From IMG/VR virus record IMGVR_UViG_3300029813_000075, positions 9,554 through 73,553 of that record: a stretch of 64,000 bases of DNA. One strand, written 5' to 3'. Below are positions 1-36,022 of the stretch, piece by piece. This DNA is from a virus. A model generated the notes under the pieces. That model was not told the origin of the DNA, ran no database searches, and worked only from the letters and a program-made list of their open reading frames with translations. Position 1 is the stretch's first letter. Every line of letters starts with the position of its first letter. A program made the translations under genes and the position numbers.

Positions 1-419
1 TCCTTTGCAATCTGAGACGCTGTATCAACCATGATAATCCACTTTTTCAGTTCATTAGCAGGTCGATTGGCTACCTTGAGCAATTCAGAATGCAAGAACT
101 CAGCAAGTGCTATCTCTTGACCTGATTCAAAGCCTTGTTCATCGTACCATTTCCCAACCTCTCTGATCTTGTCCATCTGTTCTTCATTTGGGATATAGAC
201 GGTTCGCTTCTTAACATCAGGATAAGTGTCAAGTATTGCCTTCAAATTCTCAAACGGCTCAGTAAGAGCAATGAACAGTTTCAGGTCTGGAAACATCTGC
301 GCAATCCTTACTCCAAAGGTAGTCTTCCCAGCACCAACATTTCCATAGATTGCAAGTTTGATCTTCTCATCCATGTCCAATACTGGAGCTGCCTTAAGCA
401 TAGGTGATGTATCACTCAT
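1..419 (-). CDS. P-loop ATPase, Sak4/AAA_24 (RecA-fold)-like; 3' end runs off the window; absent from ORF track
   Basis: Manual translation from ATG at 419: MSDTSPMLKAAPVLDMDEKIKLAIYGNVGAGKTT...WIIMVDTASQIAK, open to base 1. Walker A GNVGAGKT and Walker B IIMVD. Confidence 0.75.
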   Translation of the reverse strand, partial: MSDTSPMLKAAPVLDMDEKIKLAIYGNVGAGKTTFGVRIAQMFPDLKLFIALTEPFENLKAILDTYPDVKKRTVYIPNEEQMDKIREVGKWYDEQGFESGQEIALAEFLHSELLKVANRPANELKKWIIMVDTASQIAK

Positions 420-448
420 TCATTCCACATCCATTGAAATAAAGGGGG

Positions 449-467
449 GGAGTAGTTTGCCTACTCC
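449..467 (-). terminator. Terminator-like hairpin overlapping the stop of ORF 461-2188
   Basis: GGAGTAG-tttgc-CTACTCC 7-bp stem, followed on the minus strand by CCCCCTTTATTT. Confidence 0.35.
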
Positions 468-2188
468 TTCTTGTCGCCATGTATTGCAGTGCATGACTTG
501 TAGTGATCGAACACATTGCCTTCTATAATCTCGCCACAGCCAGAGCATCGAGTTGGCCCGATATGTGCCATACTCTCAATTGGCCCTTCACCACTCTCAG
601 ACGCCGCCTTAGGCAAAGAGGTAGCTGCTGGATCAGCCTTCTCGCCAACAGGACTGTCACCCTTCTCCTTTCTCACTTGCTCTAATTGCTTCTTGATGAA
701 AGGCTTATGCTCATCCAGGATTTTCATCTTGGCATCACAGTAAGGCTTCATGATGAACAACTCAAGAGATTCTATCTCTTCAATCCCAGCAGATGCCGGA
801 TAGAGTTCTCGAGTCTCCATGATTGCCTGTCTGATTATCTGTGCCTTTGACTTCTCCCCCTCACTTACCGGAACAGAAGCAGGTACAACCACTGATGGGG
901 GAACAGTAACAGACTCAACAGCCTTAGGTGCAACATCTGAAGCAATTGCAGCAACATCTTCCTTGGCTTTGGAAGGGGTGGGCTGAGGCTCCGACTTTGG
1001 AGTTGTTGGTATAGTAGTGGTGATCTCCTGTCCAACGGCTCCTGATGTTAGTCCATCCACTTTTATAACAAGGGATGCTTCAAACTCGACCCAATTAATG
1101 TCCCGAGTATCATCAGGTGCAAATCTAGTGACTGCTCCTACGCACAGAACCTCAGTCCCTTTATATGTTGATGAGAGGTAATCCAATGGATCGTCTTCCT
1201 GCATGGCATCAGCAAATACTTCCTGCATTCCAACACCAAGATCAAAGACATGATTCCCAAACTTCTTATTCAGAAGTCGAAACTTGAGTTTGTTCACTGT
1301 CTTTTCAGCAGGATCCAATGGTGATACACTAGCTGCCAAAGTATAGATAGCAATGTCTGGATTGTTAAGTCTAGGCTGAATGAGAGGTTGGCCCTCAGCA
1401 GTGGGTTCCTTCTTAGCACGCATTCGTGCCTTACCAGTGTTGGGATCTATCACAGGCATTCCATCAGTATCAGTGATAGGAACCATTTCGCCTGTCGGTT
1501 GCCAATCTTCAATCGGTTTGAATCCGCCCATCCTACCATGAATGACAATAGGTTGCCACATATGAGAGTCTCGGTCTATGGAATCAAATGGAATTGCCTT
1601 TTTAATCAGCCTCTCAACAATGTCCTTACGATCAGCAGGCTCTTCATTTTCAATAAATGCAAATGTGAATCCTGTGTCTTTTTCTCCACTGCTGCGAGTG
1701 AACTCGGTCTCTTCGATCATTGCATTTATCTTATGCCAGAAGTGAAGCGGTTTTCTGCTGCCCTCTTCACCCGGGCCTATGTCCCAGACTGTAGCCTCAA
1801 TGATCTCATCAGTTTTATCTACCAAAAGTAATGATCTATGCCCACTGACTCGCAATGGGTCAAAGTTGTTCTTCTGGGTAAGGATATCACGAGACCCTAG
1901 ATAAACCACAACCATATCCTGCATACCCTCTTTCCTCTTCTCAGCCCGCACTGCACTCTTCAAGTAATTGACACAAATCTCAAGCGGATATTCTCTACGC
2001 TTGGAATGGTCAAGAACTGTCTTGACTACTGATCGTTTGGCAAAAGGAGCAAGGTCTTTACCCACTAGAATAGAAGTGATCTCGACAAGCTTGTCAAGGG
2101 GAATCTGCTTCAATGGTGTTGCAAAAGTGCCATCTTTCTTCCACTCGGCAAGAATCTCGGCACGCTTTTCAGAATTAATGTCTGACAT
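461..2188 (-). CDS. Putative ssDNA-binding (OB-fold/RPA-like) protein with C-terminal C2HC zinc finger
   Basis: 575 aa; beta-rich middle (IIEATVWD, VLCVGAV), Pro/Ala/Glu linker, CSGC-x10-HYKSC tail. Position between a recombinase-like ATPase and the primase/polymerase. SSB call is contextual. Confidence 0.45.
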   Translation of the reverse strand: MSDINSEKRAEILAEWKKDGTFATPLKQIPLDKLVEITSILVGKDLAPFAKRSVVKTVLDHSKRREYPLEICVNYLKSAVRAEKRKEGMQDMVVVYLGSRDILTQKNNFDPLRVSGHRSLLLVDKTDEIIEATVWDIGPGEEGSRKPLHFWHKINAMIEETEFTRSSGEKDTGFTFAFIENEEPADRKDIVERLIKKAIPFDSIDRDSHMWQPIVIHGRMGGFKPIEDWQPTGEMVPITDTDGMPVIDPNTGKARMRAKKEPTAEGQPLIQPRLNNPDIAIYTLAASVSPLDPAEKTVNKLKFRLLNKKFGNHVFDLGVGMQEVFADAMQEDDPLDYLSSTYKGTEVLCVGAVTRFAPDDTRDINWVEFEASLVIKVDGLTSGAVGQEITTTIPTTPKSEPQPTPSKAKEDVAAIASDVAPKAVESVTVPPSVVVPASVPVSEGEKSKAQIIRQAIMETRELYPASAGIEEIESLELFIMKPYCDAKMKILDEHKPFIKKQLEQVRKEKGDSPVGEKADPAATSLPKAASESGEGPIESMAHIGPTRCSGCGEIIEGNVFDHYKSCTAIHGDKKE

Positions 2189-2263
2189 TTGATTTTAACT
2201 CCTAGTTAACTCCTTGTTAACATAGTTTCAAGTTACAATTCCGAAGAACTGCACGGTCTATTG

Positions 2264-2278
2264 TTACGCATTCCGTAA
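2264..2278. promoter_or_regulatory. Palindromic site TTACG-N5-CGTAA, copy 1
   Basis: TTACG-cattc-CGTAA between divergent ORFs 2188(-) and 2282(+). Confidence 0.65.
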
Positions 2279-2281
2279 TAA

Positions 2282-5200
2282 ATGTTACGACACCCCCCGA
2301 ATAATATCATAGTACTTAATAGACAGCCAAGCACATCTAACAGTTGGTTGTGCTGTGGATTGGCAACGAAGAGCATCTTCAAAAAGATAGGTCGTATAAA
2401 CTACGATACTATCAAAGGTGCTGACGCCTATACCCTAGCACGACACGGATCTGATAGACCTGGACCTTGGTTCCAAATGGTTGAGGGCATCATTCCGTAT
2501 CGACCATTCCATAGAACAACCACAGGGCACGATCACACGTATTTTATTTTGGACTTCGATATTGACATTCTTGATCCGCGACCACATCTCCAGCACAACC
2601 CACTTCTTTTGCGAGATGTTAAGATCAGAATAGGAACCAAATTCGTAAAGTCATGGCTTGACCAACATCCTGACTACCAGTTCTTCGCCAAGATCTCAGG
2701 TTCAGGTGTTCACCTTATCCAAAGATACGAAAGTCGAATTGATCCTCAGCGCATGCAACCAGTGGTCAAGCATCTATTCCCTCAGTGTGATCATGCCCCC
2801 ACATTTCCCAAAGACACCAAAGAACAGCCACACCTTTGTGACGAGACCTGCGCTGGTTGGCACTATCCATTTAATTACAACGAAGATGAGAAGGAATGGA
2901 ACCCCAACCTCAAACAATGGACTAAAGTCCTCAAGGTTGCTGGCATGACAGTTAGAATCAACGTAGACCTCAAGATGTTTGAAAGAATACACATGATCAG
3001 GTGGACTTACAGCAAGAACATGAAACTGCCTGACCGATTCAACTTCGCAATACCCATTACAAATTGGGATCCCGATTGGATACTCAAGCACATGTATCAA
3101 CAGAATCTACAAATCCTTTCCTATAGTATTCCTTCATTCCAATTCGAGGGACTACTACTACCTGAGGCCGAGATCTATCGACTGTACACCCGTCAGAAAG
3201 ATGCCAACTATGAAAAGTCTGATTGGTATTTTGTTGAAGTGCCTGATGTTGATGATGATCTGACAGACCTGCAAAAATATACTATTGAAAAGATTGATGG
3301 GCTATTATCTGCTGATGAAACAGTAGTCCCCCCCTGCGTATCTGCTTGGTATTCCAGATGCAAGAAGGGGAAAATCTATTGGGGGCGATATCCCTGGATT
3401 AAGTGGCTTGCAAACAAAGGCTATACCCCAGAAGAGATTGCACTGGTAATCAGATTCAAGGTGAATGATGCAGTCGATAATTCCGATAACAACAAGCATA
3501 TACTGCTCGAGCAGTTACCTCAAGTATATGGATCCCGATACAAGCCGTACCTCATGATGGGCTGTGCCAAACTACAGTTTCATGGTGAACCCACTAGCAT
3601 GGATATTAAGATTGCAGATGAAGAAATGTGCAAGACCTGCAGGAGAACGTACCCTCTTCAAAACTACCCTGACAAAACATTAGCAGGCGAGAAAGATGTC
3701 GGCTTTGAAAAGATCAACAAGCAATGCATAGATATCCTGGATAGTTTTGGATCTAACAATGTGGTTGTACGAAAGGCAACCAGGGCAGGACTCACCACTA
3801 CTATGATTCCTGTGGCTAAAGCACTTGGCAAGAAATTGTTAGTAGTGGTGCCAACAAACAGAATTGGCCGAGAGACCTTCGTCAAAGCTGTTGCCATATC
3901 AAAGGAACAGTTCAATGTCGAAGTACATGGTGCTATGTTTGCAGCGAACAAAAATGCCTGTCTTGTGTTGACAATCCTCAATAAAGGACTCAATGAAAAG
4001 AGACGTACTGACCCTGACCCTGCCTGGAGTAATCCTCTTGCCTGGAATGCATTGCGATATCACTCAAAACCTGTATGTGCAAACTGTAAGTATCGAACCG
4101 AAGAGTTCCCTGTTCCAATCCTTAATAGTGGCATTCCAGTACCAATGATTGACTCTGAGATCACTATGTATCTTAACGGCACTCGAAATAGCGAAGGCAG
4201 CTGTGCCTACATCACTCTATACAAGCAAATCAAGCACCTAGATGTGGTGTTCATTACCTATTCCAAGTTGTTTGCTCTATTCTCAACAGATTCTGATGAT
4301 GCTTATCATTTCAGAGAAGAACTGTTAGAATGCTTTGACGTAATACTGTTGGATGAGGTCTCCCACCTGACAAATCATTCTGCATTGTCACTACATTTAC
4401 TGAGACGTAGCACGCCTCTACCTTCAGATCCTCAAAGCCTGAAACATACAGAATATTCAAAGAACATTCTCTTGGCCTTAGAAGATGAGATCAATCAGAT
4501 GCTGGACTACCGGGACAACAGCACCAGCCAACAGATAGAGACCTTTGTACGTAAGTTCGTTACCTTCTATGAACCTCTATTAGACGATCCTATCACCACT
4601 CAAAAGACCCAACGAGTCGACAATTTCCTTGAATCTGGTGACAGGATGAGAATCATGGAAAACTTCTCGGGTTATCATGAACTAATAGAACGCGCAGCCA
4701 TTGATCACAATATTAGTCTGCACAATATTGAAGGCGTATTATTCCTATTGAATGAACCACAATGGATGCTCAGTTCCATACCAACCAAGTTTCACCCGGT
4801 TGACATTACTCTGATTACAGAACCTGCTACCAGGCATGTAAAAAGATTCGTGCGTGAGTTTGATAGAATGTACAACAAGCAGGTCATTATCACCGATGCC
4901 ACCATGCCCTACGTTAACATGCCTGATTTCTTTCAGATCAACTTTGAAAACTATGAAGTTGGTGATCCTCGAGGCACTAACAAGACACAGCTTGTGATTG
5001 CAGACTCGAGAAACTTGAACATTATTGATCTATTCTTCAACAAGGAAAGAAGTGGGCCATTGCAAACGGATCTGGCTGGATACATCAAACGAATTGCCGA
5101 AGCTCACGATCCAAAGAACATTATGATTGTTGCAGCCAATAAAGCCACAGCTGCACTGATTAGACATTTCATGAGAGATGATAAGATACCACGAATGCAA

Positions 5201-5875
5201 GTGACATGGTATAGATCTGACCTCACTATCGGGGTTGAATCAGACAAGAGAATCATGATATGTATATGCCCGCCATACCCCCCCAAGGGATCTCATGATT
5301 GGCTTGCATTCTATTATCACCTTGATGCACTGCACCTCAATGAGTCAGTCAGATATCTTGGTGATCAACTCTCAAAGACAAGCGCCAAAATAGCATTCTA
5401 TCAGGCCATAGGTCGAGCAAAAGACCCTGTTGTACGAGAGAGATCGGTTGTCTATTGTTGGGGCATCTCTGGTGGTCGAACCAGAATTGAAAGACGTGGC
5501 TCACAGACCGTAATCGAGATGATGGACTTCCAAGACAATGTACCAACACCTTATGTGTTCACAACCTCTCATAGAGATGCCAGAAGTGACAACATAATCA
5601 AAATAGCAAAAACTTGGCTAAAGTCTGGAGTCATTATAGATCCTGTCATGGTTAGAATGGTAGGTCATGTGCGTGAGAGAGGGAAACTTAGCATCTCTCA
5701 AATAGGGAGAATAATGCACATGCCCATCAGCAGACTTGAGAAACATATGACCGCTGATAACCTGCCCATATTCAAATATCTTGGAGTTGAGGTATTTGAA
5801 GAATTTTCTCCCAAATCAACTATCAAAAAAAGGTGGATGTTAAGATATGTCGGAGATGGTATTAGTAGGACATGA
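2282..5875 (+). CDS. Primase-helicase fusion: AEP (PriS) + PriL-CTD-like Fe-S domain + XPD/DinG-like SF2 helicase + C-terminal HTH
   Basis: AEP motifs LDFDID, ISGSGVH, D..R..YS.N; PriL-like PPC...GC.KL...C..C..YPL; SF2 motifs VVVPT, CAY..DVVFITYSKL, LLDEVSH, ITDAT, QAIGR. Walker A reads TRAGLT. True start probably a little downstream of 2282. Confidence 0.8.
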   Translation: MLRHPPNNIIVLNRQPSTSNSWLCCGLATKSIFKKIGRINYDTIKGADAYTLARHGSDRPGPWFQMVEGIIPYRPFHRTTTGHDHTYFILDFDIDILDPRPHLQHNPLLLRDVKIRIGTKFVKSWLDQHPDYQFFAKISGSGVHLIQRYESRIDPQRMQPVVKHLFPQCDHAPTFPKDTKEQPHLCDETCAGWHYPFNYNEDEKEWNPNLKQWTKVLKVAGMTVRINVDLKMFERIHMIRWTYSKNMKLPDRFNFAIPITNWDPDWILKHMYQQNLQILSYSIPSFQFEGLLLPEAEIYRLYTRQKDANYEKSDWYFVEVPDVDDDLTDLQKYTIEKIDGLLSADETVVPPCVSAWYSRCKKGKIYWGRYPWIKWLANKGYTPEEIALVIRFKVNDAVDNSDNNKHILLEQLPQVYGSRYKPYLMMGCAKLQFHGEPTSMDIKIADEEMCKTCRRTYPLQNYPDKTLAGEKDVGFEKINKQCIDILDSFGSNNVVVRKATRAGLTTTMIPVAKALGKKLLVVVPTNRIGRETFVKAVAISKEQFNVEVHGAMFAANKNACLVLTILNKGLNEKRRTDPDPAWSNPLAWNALRYHSKPVCANCKYRTEEFPVPILNSGIPVPMIDSEITMYLNGTRNSEGSCAYITLYKQIKHLDVVFITYSKLFALFSTDSDDAYHFREELLECFDVILLDEVSHLTNHSALSLHLLRRSTPLPSDPQSLKHTEYSKNILLALEDEINQMLDYRDNSTSQQIETFVRKFVTFYEPLLDDPITTQKTQRVDNFLESGDRMRIMENFSGYHELIERAAIDHNISLHNIEGVLFLLNEPQWMLSSIPTKFHPVDITLITEPATRHVKRFVREFDRMYNKQVIITDATMPYVNMPDFFQINFENYEVGDPRGTNKTQLVIADSRNLNIIDLFFNKERSGPLQTDLAGYIKRIAEAHDPKNIMIVAANKATAALIRHFMRDDKIPRMQVTWYRSDLTIGVESDKRIMICICPPYPPKGSHDWLAFYYHLDALHLNESVRYLGDQLSKTSAKIAFYQAIGRAKDPVVRERSVVYCWGISGGRTRIERRGSQTVIEMMDFQDNVPTPYVFTTSHRDARSDNIIKIAKTWLKSGVIIDPVMVRMVGHVRERGKLSISQIGRIMHMPISRLEKHMTADNLPIFKYLGVEVFEEFSPKSTIKKRWMLRYVGDGISRT

Positions 5876-8513
5876 ATATAATCCAAAGACAGACAATCCA
5901 ATCTACTGGTTCATTGACCTAGACAAACAAGTCATAGTGAAGCACTACATTCCAAAGTCTGATTCGGATTCATGTTTCAAACAAAAGGGTCTCACTGAAG
6001 TAGAGATCAGAAGCACAATTGAAGCCAAGGGTGGTAAAGATATCATCAAAGGCATTGATTGGATAACTCAGTACGATGTGTTGAGCAAACAGGAAATAAC
6101 AGTTGCCAGAGTGAGGCTCAAGTCAGCCAAACTTGTGGGCAAGTACAGACTCGAGACTTCTAATGAAGCCAACATCAAGCGCCCATATCGACACTCGTTT
6201 GACAAAACTTGGCTATATGGTCTAAATTACGACTCAAAATTTAAGAGAATCATCACACCAATTAATACGAAATACGAAAAAATGCTCGAAGGCCATGATA
6301 AATTGATACGAGATCGTATGTTACAGTGGACATTCACACCTCTTCCTAAAATCAAAAGAATGGCCCTTGACATTGAGACCCTATCACATGGCAAAGTGAA
6401 GCCCGATGTGAAAGAGGCACAAGAGCCTGTAATCAGTTGCGCCTTTGCCTATTCAGATAACCAGCCTGGAGAAGTGATTGTACTTAGTGCCAATGCAAGA
6501 GGACTGAAATATGAGGCCAAGTCAATGCCCATGCTCACCGAATGGATAAAGGGGGGTCTCTTGAAGGTCATAATAGTCCACAGTGAACATGAACTTTTAG
6601 AACATGTGTTCCAAAGAATCAGAAAACCTGGATATCCTCTCATCTCTACATTCTACGGCCTTGGATTTGATATGCCATATCTGAGAAATAGAGCACTTGC
6701 ACTTGGATTCCCTGAACATGAGATACCAATCAAGGGATACTTACCAAAGTTCTCGCGTCATGAATGGACTATTGAAATCGAGAACAAGATCCATCTTGAT
6801 CTCAATGTACATCTCAATCTATCCGTTATCAAAAATTATGTCCACAAAAACAAATATCTTGAAACTTCATTGGACAAGGTATCTCATGCACTGATTGACA
6901 TGGGGAAATACGAAAGTGACACTCCAATCAGTGAAATGCCTCTTAGTGAACTGGTGTGGTATAACTTCTGGGATGCATACCTCACTCAGAGATTGACTGA
7001 ATTTAACAATGAGATTGTGCTCAAAATCATCTTTCTGTTCATGCGTATTGGCAGACAGTCATTCAAAGATGCAGCTCACAGAGCAATTAGCAGTAAAATC
7101 ATTAATCTGCTCTACGGCTACATGATTGAGAACAATATTCTAATACCAACACGCGAAGATCTCAGGATCTTTGGTACATTGGAATCAGAGTCACGAACAA
7201 ACAAGTCATTCGAGGGTGCAAAAATCCTTGCTACCATCATGGGTGTACATATTGAAACTGACGTTGTGGACTTTTCAAGCTTGTATCCTTCACAAAACGA
7301 CAACTACAACATATCCTTTGAGACCATGAACTGCGGTCATGAAGAGTGTAAAAATGCAATCCATAATCAGATTCCAGAATTAGACCATTATTCCTGCATT
7401 AAGTATAGAGGTATCATGCCCAAGTTGATAGGCTTAATCAAGGATATTCGACTCAAGATCTTCAAGCCTCTTGCCAAAGACCCTGAAATGTCAGCAGTTG
7501 AACAGGCACTCAAGGTCTACATTGTTGCTGCCTTTGGAGTCACAGGTGATAAGAAGTTCAACCTATACTGTCCACCTGCAGGCGAATCAACCACAGCACT
7601 AGGTAGGTACGCCCTTGATCGTCTGCAAGAGAAGGCCGAGTCATATCCTGGAGTGACAGTTATCTTTGGTGATACTGATTCAGTAGGTCTAGTGGGTGCC
7701 ACTCCTGAGATCATCAAGGAACTTGAAGAGTGGTCTCAACGAGTGCTAAACATCGAACTGACACATGAATATCATGCCCTAATCTTTGTCATAGCGGCCT
7801 CTAAATCCAAGAAAGATGAAGGTCTAAAAAAGAACTACTTCTATGTTGAGGAAGGCACCTACAAAGTAGTGGTCAAGGGTCTCGCAGGTAAGAAACGACA
7901 AACACCACCAATCATATCTCAATGCTTCTGGGACTGTCTCAATGGCATTGCTAACGCATTGAAAGACATTGGTGAGGGCATTCACTCACTTCCTAAAGAG
8001 GTAATTGTTGCTGGCGCACGAGAGATAGTAATTCAAATCGTGCGCGACTATTGGGTCAGGATATGGAACCGTAAGGGAACCATCAAGGACTATAGATACA
8101 GCGTGCAAAAGACAAAGACATTTGCTGAATACACAGCATCTACACCACAACACATCAAAGCTGCACTATCTCTTGCCAAATGGATAAAGTCAACTGCCGG
8201 AGATGCATACAGACATGTGCCACCCGAAGTATTGGTTCCCTACGGATCTTACATTGAGTTCGTCAAATCGGCAGCCAGTGACAAGAGAAAGACTCCCAAA
8301 GAACTCACATCAATCAAGAAACATGGCATTAAGATCAATCCAATGCCCATTGAGATGGCTACCATAGAAGATGTTTGTCCTGAGATATATCATTCATCCC
8401 TGCTTTCAACAATGGAACAGATCATGATCCCTCTTGGCATCGAGGAAAAGGATGTAGTCATTCACATGAACGATCCTTTTGGTAGCCAAACATCATTGGA
8501 ACAGTTCACTTAG
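5847..8513 (+). CDS. polB: Family B DNA polymerase, archaeal PolB1-like, with 3'-5' exonuclease and C-terminal PIP box
   Basis: ExoI LDIET, ExoII GFDMPYL, ExoIII YNFWDA; motif A DFSSLYPS, motif B QALK....AFG, motif C FGDTDS, KKNY; PolB1-type ETMNCGHEEC...HYSC insert; ends QTSLEQFT. Confidence 0.97.
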   Translation: MSEMVLVGHEYNPKTDNPIYWFIDLDKQVIVKHYIPKSDSDSCFKQKGLTEVEIRSTIEAKGGKDIIKGIDWITQYDVLSKQEITVARVRLKSAKLVGKYRLETSNEANIKRPYRHSFDKTWLYGLNYDSKFKRIITPINTKYEKMLEGHDKLIRDRMLQWTFTPLPKIKRMALDIETLSHGKVKPDVKEAQEPVISCAFAYSDNQPGEVIVLSANARGLKYEAKSMPMLTEWIKGGLLKVIIVHSEHELLEHVFQRIRKPGYPLISTFYGLGFDMPYLRNRALALGFPEHEIPIKGYLPKFSRHEWTIEIENKIHLDLNVHLNLSVIKNYVHKNKYLETSLDKVSHALIDMGKYESDTPISEMPLSELVWYNFWDAYLTQRLTEFNNEIVLKIIFLFMRIGRQSFKDAAHRAISSKIINLLYGYMIENNILIPTREDLRIFGTLESESRTNKSFEGAKILATIMGVHIETDVVDFSSLYPSQNDNYNISFETMNCGHEECKNAIHNQIPELDHYSCIKYRGIMPKLIGLIKDIRLKIFKPLAKDPEMSAVEQALKVYIVAAFGVTGDKKFNLYCPPAGESTTALGRYALDRLQEKAESYPGVTVIFGDTDSVGLVGATPEIIKELEEWSQRVLNIELTHEYHALIFVIAASKSKKDEGLKKNYFYVEEGTYKVVVKGLAGKKRQTPPIISQCFWDCLNGIANALKDIGEGIHSLPKEVIVAGAREIVIQIVRDYWVRIWNRKGTIKDYRYSVQKTKTFAEYTASTPQHIKAALSLAKWIKSTAGDAYRHVPPEVLVPYGSYIEFVKSAASDKRKTPKELTSIKKHGIKINPMPIEMATIEDVCPEIYHSSLLSTMEQIMIPLGIEEKDVVIHMNDPFGSQTSLEQFT

Positions 8514-8554
8514 AAGAAGGCGGGTTCCCTTTGGCTGGTTCCAAGCACATTTAC

Positions 8555-8768
8555 TCGGAGCCGACTCCGACACCTCAGGGATCCCATTGGTGGAGAGAGC
8601 CGTACGAACTCTCTCCGTTGTGTTTTTGGGCATTTGAAAGGAGGGTGCCTGGAGAAAGTTAGACACCCTCTTGGTGGAATGTCGAGATGGAGCAGTGGTG
8701 GAGTTTGGCAACAATGAGCGAAAGAATGTCGGAAGACGACAAAAAAACGCTCCACTGCATCCAATCTC
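8555..8768. ncRNA. Candidate structured RNA or ssDNA element with four stem-loops; strand unresolved
   Basis: Stems 8555-8570, 8592-8616, 8641-8670 and a nested stem 8684-8768 in a gap with no credible ORF. Confidence 0.45.
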
Positions 8769-8816
8769 TGACCCTATTATATCGTAATAAACTAATAAGT
8801 TCAACGGTTTTGCTCA

Positions 8817-9236
8817 TTATATTCTCGCATTTACTAAATATTGGGGATATTTGGCTCGAATAATAGCAACCATGTCCTTGACTCGATGATTGGCAGTCGC
8901 TTCTTTCAAGGACTGAATCTTCTCCATGATTTGTACATCCAAATCTTGTTGTTCTAAAAGATCTCTTCCTGAGTCGGCCAATTCAAAGAGATGGATATTA
9001 CCCGCCCTATAATGTTTCACATGGCCTTGGTCAATCAGAGAGTTGAATTGTTCTGCAACTACAGTGGAGTAAGGGCCAAACTGATAGGGGAAAAATTTGA
9101 AGTCGGCCTTCTCTTTGGCTATCTCTTTCGCAATCAAGAACAGTTGATGCACAACTTTGGTCTTGCCCTTAACGGGATCGCCTTGGAGCAGAGCCAAGAT
9201 ATAGGATTGGACTGTCATATACATCACCCATTGCAA
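8817..9236 (-). CDS. YwgA/DUF4065 (Panacea/SocA-like) winged-helix protein
   Basis: KGKTK...LFLI, FKFFPYQFGPYS signature, LIDQGHV...FELADSG. Confidence 0.65.
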   Translation of the reverse strand: MQWVMYMTVQSYILALLQGDPVKGKTKVVHQLFLIAKEIAKEKADFKFFPYQFGPYSTVVAEQFNSLIDQGHVKHYRAGNIHLFELADSGRDLLEQQDLDVQIMEKIQSLKEATANHRVKDMVAIIRAKYPQYLVNARI

Positions 9237-9982
9237 AAGTCTGAGAGCTTTGCCTGGTCGTGCAACGGAAATTCAATGCCTAGCCTTCGCGCAAGATTTA
9301 CTGATCGTAGCCACGTCATTGGTTCCTTTTTTCTCATACCAGGAAAGACACAAAATACAGGACATATGTTACACCCTGTACTCTGGATTCCGCCAAAGCC
9401 ATGTTCATCCAGAATCATGTCGACATCCCTATCCGAGCAGTCACGGAGAGGATAGTAATACATCCGACTGTTACGCTTGTGAACTCGAATGAGTGTATCC
9501 TGATTACGTAGTTCGGCCATCCGAAATCTTCTCATCTTCGCCCCATCAGAACCCTTGAGACCAAGTACCAGCACCACATCATCATCGAGCAAATCTATGT
9601 AATTGTCCATTGGCTTCTTCTTCAGCACATGACAACAATAGAAGTAATTCTTGTAAAATTTCCCTGTATCCTTCTTCTTCTTCAAAACCCGGGGGATCTG
9701 TTTGAATGACTCCTGAAGTATGTCTCTGATTGGCCTGTCACCATCATATTTCGTAGTCACAAGTTCATAGCCTGTCAACTCTTGAAGTCGGTGCAGAACA
9801 TCTTTGGCTCCACCTCTATTTAGACCAGTATCATTGAATGCCATGACTACATCCTTAATGTCAACATTCCAAGCTTCAAGCACCATAGCTGTTGAGTCAC
9901 GACCACCACTTGCCAAAATCACCACCTTGCGATTGGTTGGTAATTGGCTATAGTCGGGTCTATGAACAACCATTCCTCTCAA
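9224..9982 (-). CDS. PAPS-reductase-family (PP-loop) protein with PIP-like C-terminus
   Basis: ASGGRDS PP-loop, NDTG, CCHVLKKKP, LGLKGSDG..R, YPL.D, TGCNICP; ends QAKLSDFCNG. Confidence 0.88.
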   Translation of the reverse strand: MRGMVVHRPDYSQLPTNRKVVILASGGRDSTAMVLEAWNVDIKDVVMAFNDTGLNRGGAKDVLHRLQELTGYELVTTKYDGDRPIRDILQESFKQIPRVLKKKKDTGKFYKNYFYCCHVLKKKPMDNYIDLLDDDVVLVLGLKGSDGAKMRRFRMAELRNQDTLIRVHKRNSRMYYYPLRDCSDRDVDMILDEHGFGGIQSTGCNICPVFCVFPGMRKKEPMTWLRSVNLARRLGIEFPLHDQAKLSDFCNG

Positions 9983-34102: not shown

Positions 34103-36022
34103 ATGAGTCTGCGCGATAAGCTCGACAATCTGGATGATCTGTATGACGAGATTGAGTCTGACATAGACAAGAAGAAACGAGCCATCAAACAGAGAATGAC
34201 TGATCTCGAGGATCAGGAAATGTTCGGCACCTTTGAGTCAGATCTTGTCAAGGAGTTTCTTAACAAGCCATATGTTATACTGCCACGTGGCACGAAGGAA
34301 CAGGAGTGGTTGATGATCATTCCCAAGTTCTTTGACTTCAACGTTGGATGGCTGTTGCAAAGCACTGATAGTTACAATGTGTTCATTGTCAACAAGTACG
34401 CTGACTACCTGGGGGCTGTGCCTAAGGAGTTCCAGGGACTGTTCAAGTTCAAACCACGAATGCCGCTCAAGGTACTCGATGGTGTCATGCTGACGGGTGA
34501 GGACCATCAGGATGCTGCCTGGGAGAGATACAAACGTTTCCTCTCAGCCAGGAAGGGATCTGACGCCATTCGTATTAAGAAGGGCAAAGCATTTGATCTG
34601 ATTGCTGCGTTGATTGATGATGGCATTCTTCCATTCATGCGTAAGCCAGTGGCAAAGGAGCACAAGAAAAGGTCAGTGTGGACACTTGGGCATCTTAGTA
34701 CGGATGCCATGAAGAATGTAATGACAAGATTAGAGATGAAATTCTTCAAGGATGCTATGAGCAAGTTCTACAAGACAGGCGCAGTGGGTGTCTATTGGGC
34801 GACAGGCGTGGGCAAGACTCTGATTGGCCTAGAGGTACTTAGCAGCGTGCGGGTAGATGATCGCCCCAATGTGGTGATTAGTGGCACCAGTGCGGCCTTA
34901 CAATTACAGTGGCAACAGAGATTGAGCAGTGTCAAGTTAGCTGCCGAGACCATAGTGGTGCCCTTCCAGAGCTGGCACAAGATCAAAGATATCGATGTGG
35001 GTGTCATGATTATAGACGAATGCCATCATCTTCCAGCTAATTCATTCAGTAAGATCGCCACCATGAACTGTGAATATCGAATGGGCCTTTCTGCCACTCC
35101 GTACCGAGAGGATGGTAGATCTGACTACATCTTTGCCCTGACAGGATTCCCCATTGGTTTGGATTGGAAGGTGTTGATTGATTTGGGTCTCATTATCGAA
35201 CCCGAAATTACATTGTACCTGAGTGCTAACTATGCTCAGAAACGCAAGAAGTTGGGCGAGTTGCTTAGAGATCCAGTAAAGACACTGATCTATTGTTTCA
35301 GTGTACAAGAGGGCAAGTCGTTGAGTCGTGAGTTCAGCATTCCTTTTGTGTATGGTGACACGCCAGTGAAAGAAAGACTCGAGATTATCAAGAACAGCCA
35401 TCAGACCATAGTTAGCAGTGCTATGGGCGAGGGCATCTCTGTAAGGAACATTCAGAGAACCGTGACTTACAACTTCTTGTTTGGTTCTAGGCAGGAAGAG
35501 ACGCAGTTCTTTGGCCGTCTGCTACATGGTGTCGAGAAGGGCAAACATGTCATTCTAATGACGGATGATGAGTATGAGAGGTACGGCAAGCGTCTCTATG
35601 GCATTCAGGAAAAGGGCTTCAAGATTGCAGTGATTCGAGTTGGCGGGTCTGTAAGAGCCTCGAGGCCGAAGCCTGCACCTAGACCTAGACCTAGAGCAAG
35701 ACTTGATACACCGTTTCCAGTTTCTCATTTAAGATCAGAGAAGGTTGAACCTAAGGTGACTGTCGATAAATCGCATAAGTATCCATTTCTTGATGAGAGA
35801 GATGATTTCAGTGAGAGTATGATTGTGAGGATATTGCAGTCTGACTATGCTAAGGAAGAGAGAGGGCTGACAGTGGCTCAGATCAAGAAGATTCTTGATC
35901 ACTATCATGTCGATTATGGTAAGTGGCACAAGATTAGAAACACTGTCAGGAAACTGTACGATAAGAGAGATATTGGTGCTAAGAGAGAAGGCAAAGCACG
36001 CAGGTATTTCATGACGGAGTGA
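34103..36022 (+). CDS. SF2 helicase, XPB/Rad25-like, with C-terminal winged helix
   Basis: ATGVGKT, IIDECHH, GLSATPYREDG, EGIS, QFFGRLL. Confidence 0.88.
   Translation: MSLRDKLDNLDDLYDEIESDIDKKKRAIKQRMTDLEDQEMFGTFESDLVKEFLNKPYVILPRGTKEQEWLMIIPKFFDFNVGWLLQSTDSYNVFIVNKYADYLGAVPKEFQGLFKFKPRMPLKVLDGVMLTGEDHQDAAWERYKRFLSARKGSDAIRIKKGKAFDLIAALIDDGILPFMRKPVAKEHKKRSVWTLGHLSTDAMKNVMTRLEMKFFKDAMSKFYKTGAVGVYWATGVGKTLIGLEVLSSVRVDDRPNVVISGTSAALQLQWQQRLSSVKLAAETIVVPFQSWHKIKDIDVGVMIIDECHHLPANSFSKIATMNCEYRMGLSATPYREDGRSDYIFALTGFPIGLDWKVLIDLGLIIEPEITLYLSANYAQKRKKLGELLRDPVKTLIYCFSVQEGKSLSREFSIPFVYGDTPVKERLEIIKNSHQTIVSSAMGEGISVRNIQRTVTYNFLFGSRQEETQFFGRLLHGVEKGKHVILMTDDEYERYGKRLYGIQEKGFKIAVIRVGGSVRASRPKPAPRPRPRARLDTPFPVSHLRSEKVEPKVTVDKSHKYPFLDERDDFSESMIVRILQSDYAKEERGLTVAQIKKILDHYHVDYGKWHKIRNTVRKLYDKRDIGAKREGKARRYFMTE

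Follow-up and report, generated by a model that had tools for sequence, protein, structure and literature searches.

Was a helicase of the repair type recruited to a viral replication fork? The question is raised by a single gene, P0001 (2282..5875, + strand, 1197 aa), in the window, the whole stretch of 64,000 nucleotides of viral DNA analysed here. From its N-terminal side, the encoded chain carries an AEP catalytic domain and then a PriL C-terminal domain (CTD); these are followed by an SF2 helicase of the XPD/DinG type, into which Fe-S and Arch elements are inserted, and by a small domain at the C-terminus. This fusion layout suggests that such a recruitment took place. An initial annotation had described the product as a single-chain PriS-PriL-XPD-like primase-helicase. 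Each of its domain calls was upheld by independent tests (fold comparison and hhalign), and all the motifs it quoted were found in the gene on the + strand and are conserved among homologues. Of the label itself, the AEP fold, the PriL-CTD and the XPD-type helicase are supported; the PriS assignment is not supported by sequence, and PriL is represented by its CTD only.

Gene, family and genomic neighbourhood

P0001 derives from an uncultured tailed (myovirus-like) archaeal virus. Its start codon is uncertain, with ATG 2282 and TTG 2348 as the two candidates: the homologue P0004, which is 95% identical, starts at residue 23 of P0001, other homologues start near residues 29–31, and residues 1–29 are modelled with pLDDT below 50. 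The two AF2 models of the protein reached pLDDT values of 87 and 93. No match to P0001 was obtained with Pfam, PHROG or NCBIfam models, and tblastn against deposited phage genomes revealed no similarity. The family nevertheless comprises 22 near-full-length homologues sharing 27–95% identity, more than 40 full-length relatives in metagenomes, and 402 related representative clusters (E ≤ 1e-3; metagenomes). With 22 such homologues and 402 related clusters, the open reading frame and its motifs lie far beyond chance. The label currently carried across the whole family is 'hypothetical'.

Immediately downstream, the gene for a family B DNA polymerase, P0002 (5847..8513, +; Pfam DNA_pol_B, 1.8e-23), starts within the fusion gene and overlaps its last 29 nt. 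PolB was likewise located downstream of the fusion gene in all five of the five related viral or MAG loci, which share only 27–54% identity. On the other side lies the divergently transcribed gene of P0003 (461..2188, −), a 575-aa protein of unknown family that had no match in Pfam or PHROG; tblastn matches on the opposite strand show that it is conserved upstream in two related loci (L002 and L006). A scan of 30 other ORFs of the record revealed no helicase of the MCM, SF3 or DnaB type; two further SF2 helicases are encoded in the record. As the record is only ~49% complete, another replicative helicase could lie outside it.

Domain architecture of the fusion protein

The AEP primase-polymerase domain (residues ~30–300; 2369..3181, +) was identified by fold match and by its catalytic motifs. 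The three motifs on which the initial annotation had relied are all present: motif I, D91-x-D93 (FILDFD; 2552–2560), motif II, S139-G-S-G-V-H144 (SGSGVH, residues 139–144; 2696–2713), and motif III, D229 (2966–2968). The top Foldseek matches of this part were all AEPs, and VIA-align placed it in the AEP fold with Z-scores of 13.9 to 9.9 (13.9 for 6sa0, Prim-PolC, then 13.4 and 11.9, with PriS at 10.6–9.9); the best structural matches are Prim-PolC and the LigD polymerase domain (Z 13.9–11.8), above PriS (~10). The catalytic residues are well kept, D91/D93 in 39/40 and D229 in 40/40 sequences, and position 144 of motif II is occupied by His in 26/40 and by Tyr in 14/40. The PriS model of Pfam (PF01896) matched neither P0001 nor any of its 22 homologues, and hhalign of the AEP part against 27 Asgard PriS proteins gave a probability of only 11%; on sequence grounds, membership of PriS cannot be claimed for this part.

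The PriL C-terminal (Fe-S) domain-like module follows (residues ~325–465; 3254..3676, +) and was detected by both fold and profile. VIA-align matched it to yeast and human PriL Fe-S domains, with Z 8.2 (6di2; rmsd 3.9, 129 aligned) and Z 8.0 (8d0k_E), and the next-ranked fold matches were the helical domains of photolyases and cryptochromes, which are related in structure to the PriL-CTD. A comparison with 28 Asgard PriL proteins by hhalign reached a probability of 97.0% (E 9.6e-11, 128 columns), so that the PriL-CTD-like character read from the sequence earlier was supported by fold and profile alike. Pfam PF04104 matched 4/22 homologues (best 6.8e-6) and had no match in P0001 itself. The cysteines concerned are C352 (PPC; 3335–3337), C428 (GCAKL; 3563–3565), and C450 and C453 (CKTC; 3629–3631 and 3638–3640). 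In the hhalign alignment with PriL, C352 corresponds to Cys 1, C428 to Cys 2 and C450 to Cys 4, while the Cys 3 position is occupied by Ala in P0001 and by Cys in the subfamilies without C450, and C453 is an extra invariant Cys relative to PriL. Each PriL-like domain thereby retains four cysteines, one ligand position being swapped between subfamilies, and is a candidate for holding a putative [4Fe-4S] cluster. No match to the PriL N-terminal (PriS-docking) domain was seen, and the gap between the AEP domain and the CTD-like module spans only ~25 residues; the PriL content of P0001 is the C-terminal domain only.

The XPD/DinG-type SF2 helicase (residues ~476–1075; 3707..5506, +) consists of two RecA-like domains with Fe-S and Arch inserts, and its AF2 model has a pLDDT of 93.4 and a pTM of 0.92. 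The best Foldseek match was 8rev_A (E 1.8e-16), and the top 37 matches were all XPD, DinG or CasDinG. With VIA-align, 500–548 residues aligned to XPD/DinG chains versus 300–330 for other SF2 helicases, the extra ~200 aligned residues being found only with XPD/DinG chains. Comparison with 31 Asgard XPDs by hhalign gave a probability of 96.9% (E 1.5e-10), in an alignment where motifs I, Ia, II, III and VI match up, as do the four cysteines, and the PADLOC typeIV_DinG model matched at 1.3e-8. Pfam DEAD_2 (PF06733) had no match in P0001 and matched 3/22 homologues (best E 7e-4). The XPD/DinG layout proposed for this SF2 helicase is thus supported, and the SF2 family it matches is an Fe-S one. Among the motifs, Ia reads PTNRIG (residues 524–529), II (Walker B) D691-E692-V-S694 (4352..4363, +), III T871-D-A-T874 (4892..4903, +), aligned to SGT of XPD, and VI Q1041-x-x-G-R1045-x-K1047 (Q1041-AIGRAK-1047; 5402..5422, +). 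D691, E692, Q1041 and R1045 are invariant in 68 relatives; together with the retained AEP aspartates and the conserved cysteines, they speak for an enzyme that is active.

The Fe-S domain-like insert in helicase domain 1 (3947..4225, +) contains four invariant cysteines, C560 (NAC; 3959–3961), C599 and C602 (CANC; 4076–4078 and 4085–4087) and C641 (SCAY; 4202–4204). They lie between motifs Ia and II, and each aligns to one conserved XPD cysteine (mCL, eC, C.y and iCPY), which agrees with the cysteine cluster originally noted here. All four are invariant in 68/68 relatives, and in the wider family the cysteines are conserved with variable spacing; a putative [4Fe-4S] cluster would be bound at this site. 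The long insert reported before motif III proved to be Arch-like: motifs II and III are 176 residues apart, and the Arch-domain-like insert between them (residues ~705–855; 4394..4846, +), recognised with hhalign and VIA-align, is covered throughout by the hhalign alignment to the XPD Arch region. The small C-terminal domain (residues ~1085–1190; 5534..5851, +) is modelled as three to five helices and then a beta-hairpin, and a separate HMM built for it matched 49 relatives; judged by the modelled secondary structure, it may be a winged helix.

The deviant P-loop

The P-loop of the helicase, K498-A-T-R501-A-G-L504-T-T506 (3773..3799, +), aligns to the XPD sequence A-p-n-G-f-G-K-T and departs from it in a specific manner. 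In general form, K-x-T-R-x-G-x-T-T stands against the A-x-x-G-x-G-K-T of XPD and DinG: Lys occupies position 1, Arg position 4, and the classical position 7 is without Lys, being Leu or Val instead. Positions 1 and 7 are Lys/non-Lys in 133 relatives and Gly/Lys in 7, with no mixed cases, and Arg at position 4 is present in 141/141. The 7 classical Gly1/Lys7 sequences form one nested clade, so the covariation corresponds to at most two evolutionary events. As aligned, the Walker A lysine is relocated to P-loop position 1, not lost.

Among terminases, 'deviant' Walker A motifs have been described, as has an Arg that is conserved at position 3 or 4 of Walker A (PMC6379665). The lambda-type large terminases, with a deviant Walker A and an 'arginine toggle' (PMC6379665), share with P0001 the Lys at position 1, the Arg at position 4 and the absence of Lys before Ser/Thr; they combine a terminase ATPase with a nuclease domain, whereas P0001 contains a two-RecA SF2 helicase. 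The likeness of the two P-loops is probably convergent, an analogy and not a sign of membership. With the Walker A lysine moved in a coupled exchange in ~130 natural sequences, and with a nested reversion, the family offers a clean natural experiment in the P-loop chemistry of an SF2 helicase.

Proposed function and comparison with known systems

We propose, with a probability of about 0.6, that P0001 is a viral replication primosome in one polypeptide with a 5'-3' motor; its primase and helicase activities are predicted. The helicase would bind ATP via the rearranged P-loop, in which Lys498 would replace the classical Walker A lysine and the invariant Arg501 would play the part that the Walker A arginine has in terminase motors. 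By analogy with XPD and DinG, it would translocate 5'-3' on ssDNA as a non-ring motor and, moving in this direction, is proposed to ride the lagging-strand template. The strand-separating pore would be formed by the Arch domain and by the domain with the putative cysteine-ligated [4Fe-4S] cluster, and the tethered AEP domain would synthesise primers on the exposed strand. The PriL-type domain, with a second predicted [4Fe-4S] cluster, would assist it and hold the initiating nucleotide and the template, and the family B polymerase encoded immediately downstream would extend the primers. Where a dsDNA virus encodes a helicase with a primase on its N-terminal side, this order usually identifies the replicative helicase (PMC4889955). 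A broader scenario is put forward tentatively: an archaeal tailed virus lineage may have recruited an XPD/Rad3-type helicase for the fork and fused it to an AEP and PriL Fe-S primase, with the Walker A lysine relocated and with two [4Fe-4S] clusters between which DNA-mediated redox signalling, for instance, might provide a coupling that times primer hand-off.

We know of no XPD/DinG-family helicase that drives a replicative fork; the characterised members act in repair, transcription or defence, as the descriptions of the fold matches also indicate. This favours a repair or restart enzyme, whose XPD-like motor would act on damaged or stalled DNA and whose PrimPol-like AEP would re-prime or fill gaps, the genome being replicated by host MCM and primase. 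The same reading draws on the repair polymerases Prim-PolC and LigD, which rank above PriS among the structural matches of the AEP domain, and on the existence of AEP-SF2 helicase fusions with non-replicative roles, such as IEE (PMC9943667). We nevertheless consider it unlikely, given that the linkage to PolB is tight and conserved in distant relatives, that the scanned portion of the ~49%-complete record showed no further primase or replicative helicase, and that a PriL Fe-S domain is present. In known systems, the latter domain serves de novo primer initiation.

A role in defence or counter-defence, as the effector of a conflict system rather than a replication protein, is highly improbable. 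It is prompted by distant relatives (e.g., P0125, P0157 and P0060) that match Pfam AEP-TOTE, a family named after TOTE conflict systems, by the PADLOC models PrimPol, RT_UG10 and typeIV_DinG, which match the P0001 family, and by CasDinG and DdmD among the helicase fold matches, DinG-like helicases being known to serve type IV CRISPR and DdmDE systems. P0001, however, has no match to AEP-TOTE (PF22548), the AEP of its subfamily aligned to the AEP-TOTE domains of 52 distant relatives with an hhalign probability of 3%, and the name refers to a single setting in which that AEP family occurs and does not describe what the helicase does; the fusion gene itself belongs with PolB to a replication module and does not adjoin nuclease, TPR, OB or TBP genes. 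Least probable of all is a helicase part devoid of ATPase activity that serves as a scaffold or ssDNA clamp and merely positions the primase on DNA. This idea arises because the classical Walker A lysine is missing, with Leu or Val at position 7, and there are precedents for inactive helicase-like domains whose sole role is DNA binding. It fits poorly with Walker B (D691/E692), motif III and Q1041/R1045, invariant across relatives down to 19% identity, and with the occurrence of Lys at position 1 exactly when position 7 lacks it, and vice versa; Mitchell and Rao reportedly described in 2004 that lambda-type terminases function with the same K-x-x-R-x-G-x-[ST] pattern.

If P0001 is indeed a primosome that drives the fork, the set of motors able to do so would be broader than the one now recognised. 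To our knowledge, replicative helicases are ring-shaped members of SF3, SF4 or MCM, or, in herpesviruses, of SF1. Viral SF2 replicative helicases are rare (PMC4889955). In the searchable literature no replicative role for an XPD-type Fe-S helicase was found, nor was any description found of a primase, a PriL Fe-S domain and an XPD/DinG helicase in one chain. The protein would also provide a compact single-gene system for the role of primase and XPD-family Fe-S clusters, with both predicted clusters in one chain and separately mutable. Since ~400 clusters are all labelled 'hypothetical', correct annotation would clarify many genomes of archaeal viruses and mobile elements.

Among known systems, XPD/Rad3 and DinG (SF2 Fe-S; PDB 8rev, 3crv, 4a15 and 6fws) have, like P0001, two RecA-like domains, a four-cysteine insert in domain 1 and an Arch-like insert, with motifs Ia, II, III and VI in register; unlike them, P0001 has its helicase fused to a primase and adjoins a viral PolB, and the identity is only 10–16%. 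The primase half is comparable with PolpTN2 of the Thermococcus plasmid pTN2 (PMC3973330), in which an AEP is followed by a PriL-type Fe-S domain in one chain, and with the monomeric Nanoarchaeum equitans primase (PMC10250227), which also combines the two; both lack the PriL N-terminal domain, as P0001 does. Unlike P0001, neither has a helicase; P0001 further differs in its AEP, whose sequence is not recognisable as PriS, and in the C-x2-C arrangement of its putative third and fourth Fe-S ligands.

Viral and plasmid primase-helicase fusions include T7 gp4, P4 alpha, poxvirus D5 and pRN1 ORF904, and those with SF2 helicases include N15/PY54 RepA (DnaG-SF2) and Sphingomonas phage PAU gp68 (AEP-SF2) (PMC4889955). 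Such fusions share with P0001 the N-terminal primase, the location in a replication module and a small, possibly DNA-binding C-terminal domain, whereas P0001 has a non-ring XPD-type Fe-S helicase rather than one of SF3, SF4 or MCM and includes the PriL Fe-S domain. The herpesvirus UL5-UL52-UL8 complex (PDB 9ut1) likewise associates an AEP primase with a non-hexameric 5'-3' helicase, and its AEP (9ut1_B) weakly resembles that of P0001 in fold (Z 5.1); the complex differs in its SF1 helicase, its separate subunits and a zinc finger in place of the PriL Fe-S domain. On the proposed primosome reading, T7 gp4 and herpesvirus UL5-UL52 would be functional parallels of P0001 that are assembled from different parts.

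The fusion gene and its viral setting

The source record is a linear IMG/VR virus of 76 kb, estimated to be about 49% complete. It is a tailed, myovirus-like virus, since it encodes a portal, an HK97-type capsid protein, a tail sheath and, just beyond the window, a large terminase (5615-7276, + strand, of L068, which comprises record bases 1-9553). L068 also carries a Salactin-family (archaeal actin-like) protein (2742-3842, +; 4.7e-25) and a UvsW/SNF2-like SF2 helicase (323-1852, -). The fusion ORF at 2282-5875 (+) is translated into 1197 residues without a stop. Its start codon is uncertain: a 95%-identical homologue starts at residue 23, corresponding to TTG 2348, other homologues open near residues 29-31, and pLDDT is <50 over residues 1-29 of the model.

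The initial annotation described this product, P0001, as a single-chain PriS-PriL-XPD-like primase-helicase with possibly two Fe-S clusters, and every motif it quoted is present in the translation where it was placed. The archaeo-eukaryotic primase (AEP) motifs are D91-x-D93, S139-GSGVH-144 and D229, and they are followed by PriL-like cysteines C352 (PPC), C428 (GCAKL) and C450/C453 (CKTC). The helicase part comprises the P-loop K498-ATRAGLTT, the cysteines C560 (NAC), C599/C602 (CANC) and C641 (SCAY), and motifs II (D691-EVS), III (T871-DAT) and VI (Q1041-AIGRAK).

A family B DNA polymerase (PolB; 5847-8513, +; Pfam 1.8e-23) starts inside the fusion gene, overlapping its last 29 nt. A PolB homologue lies downstream of the fusion-gene homologue in all five related loci, which have 27-54% identity and are four IMG/VR contigs and one 39-kb contig (L006) binned in a Promethearchaeota MAG; the binning of this one homologous contig hints at an Asgard host. 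In L006 (9518-14485) the polymerase is found in two pieces, matching residues 6-563 and 609-887 and lying about 2.5 kb apart; an intein or a gene insertion could account for the gap. Upstream of the fusion gene and in divergent orientation, a 575-residue protein with no family match is encoded (461-2188, -); it occupies the same position in L006 and in a second related locus, L002, and ends in a C-x2-C ... H-x3-C motif.

A Pfam scan of 30 other ORFs of the record detected neither a further primase nor an MCM, SF3 or DnaB helicase. Two SF2 helicases besides the fusion protein were seen among these ORFs, and both look accessory. The one encoded within the window (34103-36022, +; 639 aa) matches ResIII (5e-11) and Helicase_C, and weakly the XPB/ERCC3 C-terminal family; the presence of XPB-like and XPD-like enzymes within one virus is curious.

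The helicase half and its Walker A motif

Four lines of evidence place the C-terminal half in the XPD/DinG family. A model of residues 470-1197, built from 68 sequences (pLDDT 93.4, pTM 0.92), was compared with the PDB using Foldseek; the first 37 rows are all XPD, DinG or CasDinG (best 8rev_A, E 1.8e-16), followed by DdmD. On realignment, XPD/DinG chains superpose over 500-548 residues with Z 16-17; for DEAD-box, DEAH and RecQ enzymes the alignment covers only the two RecA domains, about 300-330 residues. The longer alignment thus identifies the XPD/DinG family and not just any SF2 helicase. The helicase profile matches that of 31 Asgard XPDs (probability 96.9%, E 1.5e-10, 494 columns), with motifs I, Ia, II, III and VI, the Arch region and the four cysteines in register: NAC-L pairs with mC-L, the C-x2-C pair with its counterpart, and G-S-C-A-Y with g-i-C-P-Y. 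The PADLOC type IV DinG model matches residues 507-967 (1.3e-8), and Pfam DEAD_2, ResIII and DEAD match a minority of homologues. The four cysteines are invariant in 68/68 sequences, at identities down to 19%, and are found again, more tightly spaced, in the wider family. The proposed Fe-S type of SF2 helicase is therefore upheld on both points where it might have failed, the matches falling in the Fe-S family and the cysteines being conserved in homologues.

The P-loop departs from the XPD pattern. In the alignment, K-A-T-R-A-G-L-T stands opposite A-p-n-G-f-G-K-T, so that the classical lysine site is occupied by Leu or Val and the first position by Lys. Among 140 relatives with an alignable P-loop, 133 combine Lys at position 1 with a non-lysine at position 7, the remaining seven combine Gly at position 1 with Lys at position 7, and none has both lysines or neither. 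These cannot be counted as 140 independent observations: in an XPD-rooted tree the seven classical sequences form a single clade, with support 1.0, inside the remaining sequences, so the pattern goes back to two coupled switches at most, one of which looks like a reversion. The exchange between the two positions argues that Lys498 would provide the phosphate-binding lysine. Arg501, at position 4, was considered as a stand-in for the missing lysine and rejected, since arginine, found there in 141/141 sequences, is just as constant in the seven that retain the classical residue.

The P-loop so formed, K-x-x-R-x-G-x-[ST], has the pattern reported by Mitchell and Rao (2004) for the "deviant" Walker A motif of large terminases of the lambda type; we take the likeness as an analogy. 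Nearly all terminases retain an arginine at Walker A position 3 or 4, which has been proposed to act as a toggle linking hydrolysis to movement (PMC6379665).

The primase half and the wider family

An AlphaFold2 model of residues 1-475 (40 sequences, mean pLDDT 87) resolves into two parts in a library-wide structural alignment. Residues of about 30-296 match AEPs, with Z 13.9 for Prim-PolC (6sa0), 13.4 for an archaeal NHEJ polymerase, 11.9 and 11.8 for LigD polymerase domains, and 10.6-9.9 for PriS of yeast, Pyrococcus, human and Sulfolobus; Foldseek matches of the N-terminal model are weaker and also almost purely AEPs. Among 40 sequences, D91 and D93 are kept in 39 and D229 in all, while at the motif II histidine position 26 have His and 14 have Tyr. 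Profile-profile comparison yielded a probability of 11% for PriS and 3% for the AEP-TOTE family, which does not allow assignment to either by sequence. Of the PriS-PriL label, the AEP catalytic domain and the PriL C-terminal domain therefore stand, whereas PriS membership by sequence does not, and "PriS" is to be read as an AEP catalytic domain. Within the AEP, a Cys/His-rich insert (window 2786-2866, residues 169-195: C169, H184, C186, C190, H194) is kept in most close homologues and missing in P0010-P0014 and P0023-P0025, and possibly forms an optional zinc site.

Residues of about 330-465 match the Fe-S domains of yeast PriL (6di2; Z 8.2, rmsd 3.9, 129 residues) and human PRIM2 (8d0k_E; Z 8.0), and then the helical domains of photolyases and cryptochromes, which are structurally related to the PriL C-terminal domain. 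The 320-470 profile matches 28 Asgard PriL sequences (probability 97.0%, E 9.6e-11); the PriL N-terminal domain is absent from P0001. C352, C428 and C450 align with PriL cysteines 1, 2 and 4, respectively. At the site of PriL cysteine 3, P0001 has Ala and subfamilies without C450 have Cys, and C453, an extra cysteine relative to PriL, is invariant in 40/40. Owing to this exchange, four cysteines are kept in every member with one putative ligand position shifted, a pattern to be expected if the domain has to retain a cluster.

P0001 matched no model in Pfam, PHROGs or NCBIfam, and phmmer and hmmsearch against PDB sequences returned only insignificant DEAD-box and DnaA matches. A word-indexed search retrieved 22 homologues (1166-1198 aa, 27-95% identity over >92% of the length), and a profile search of 1.8 billion representatives yielded 402 clusters at E<=1e-3, 112 of them at E<=1e-30. 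By tblastn, nothing similar was detected in 50,697 deposited phage genomes. Ten relatives had no informative source name, being unnamed or "hypothetical protein".

HMMs for the separate domains, derived from the family alignment, were run on the best 170 proteins. The AEP/PriL-CTD/helicase order of P0001 was found in 45, a PriL-CTD/helicase core with a divergent N-terminus in about 28, and the helicase alone in many. According to Pfam and a seed HMM, about 52 relatives carry an AEP-TOTE family AEP. It precedes the helicase in some; in others it comes after the helicase, and a PriL-like domain follows. The latter, circularly permuted form (helicase, AEP-TOTE primase, PriL-like domain) is seen in P0125, P0127, P0157 and similar proteins of about 940-980 aa; the nearest ESM Atlas cluster (941 aa) is 98% AEP-TOTE and mostly archaeal (Methanobacteriota), and in tblastn of P0125 against plasmids and phages only the AEP part matched. 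In the giant relatives P0057-P0063 and P0067 (1750-1950 aa), the helicase profile matches 5-7 separate stretches with large inserts between them; Pfam identified only the N-terminal AEP, and no intein domain, in P0060.

Proposed role and comparison with known systems

A helicase that carries a primase at its N-terminal side is, in dsDNA viruses, usually the replicative one (PMC4889955). Given this domain order, the PolB linkage and the absence of any other primase and of MCM, SF3 and DnaB helicases from the 30 other ORFs scanned, the best-supported reading is that the fusion protein is a one-chain primosome. We infer that its two cysteine sets would bind metal and that the XPD-type motor would run 5'-3' along the lagging-strand template; the tethered AEP would prime, aided by the PriL-type domain, and the primers would be passed to the adjacent PolB.

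The main rival is a role in repair or re-priming, which we regard as unlikely in view of the same polymerase linkage and of the absence of another primase from the ORFs scanned. Less likely still is that the protein acts as the effector of a conflict system. That the helicase part, with its altered P-loop, is an ATPase-dead scaffold is similarly improbable, as the Walker B Asp-Glu and the motif VI Gln and Arg are invariant.

Each part of this one-chain primosome candidate is of a known kind, and so are primase-helicase fusions. Stand-alone XPD/DinG-like helicases occur in viruses, as in SSV-K1 (B494) and several rhizobiophages, and the fusion is not among them. In the literature searched, we found no description of a protein that combines an AEP and the Fe-S domain of PriL, linked to an Fe-S helicase of the XPD type, with two predicted clusters per chain and a relocated Walker A lysine. 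SF2 replicative helicases are rare in dsDNA viruses, the examples being RepA of N15 and PY54 and gp68 of PAU (PMC4889955); P0001 unites an SF2 helicase of the XPD type with an AEP and a PriL-CTD.
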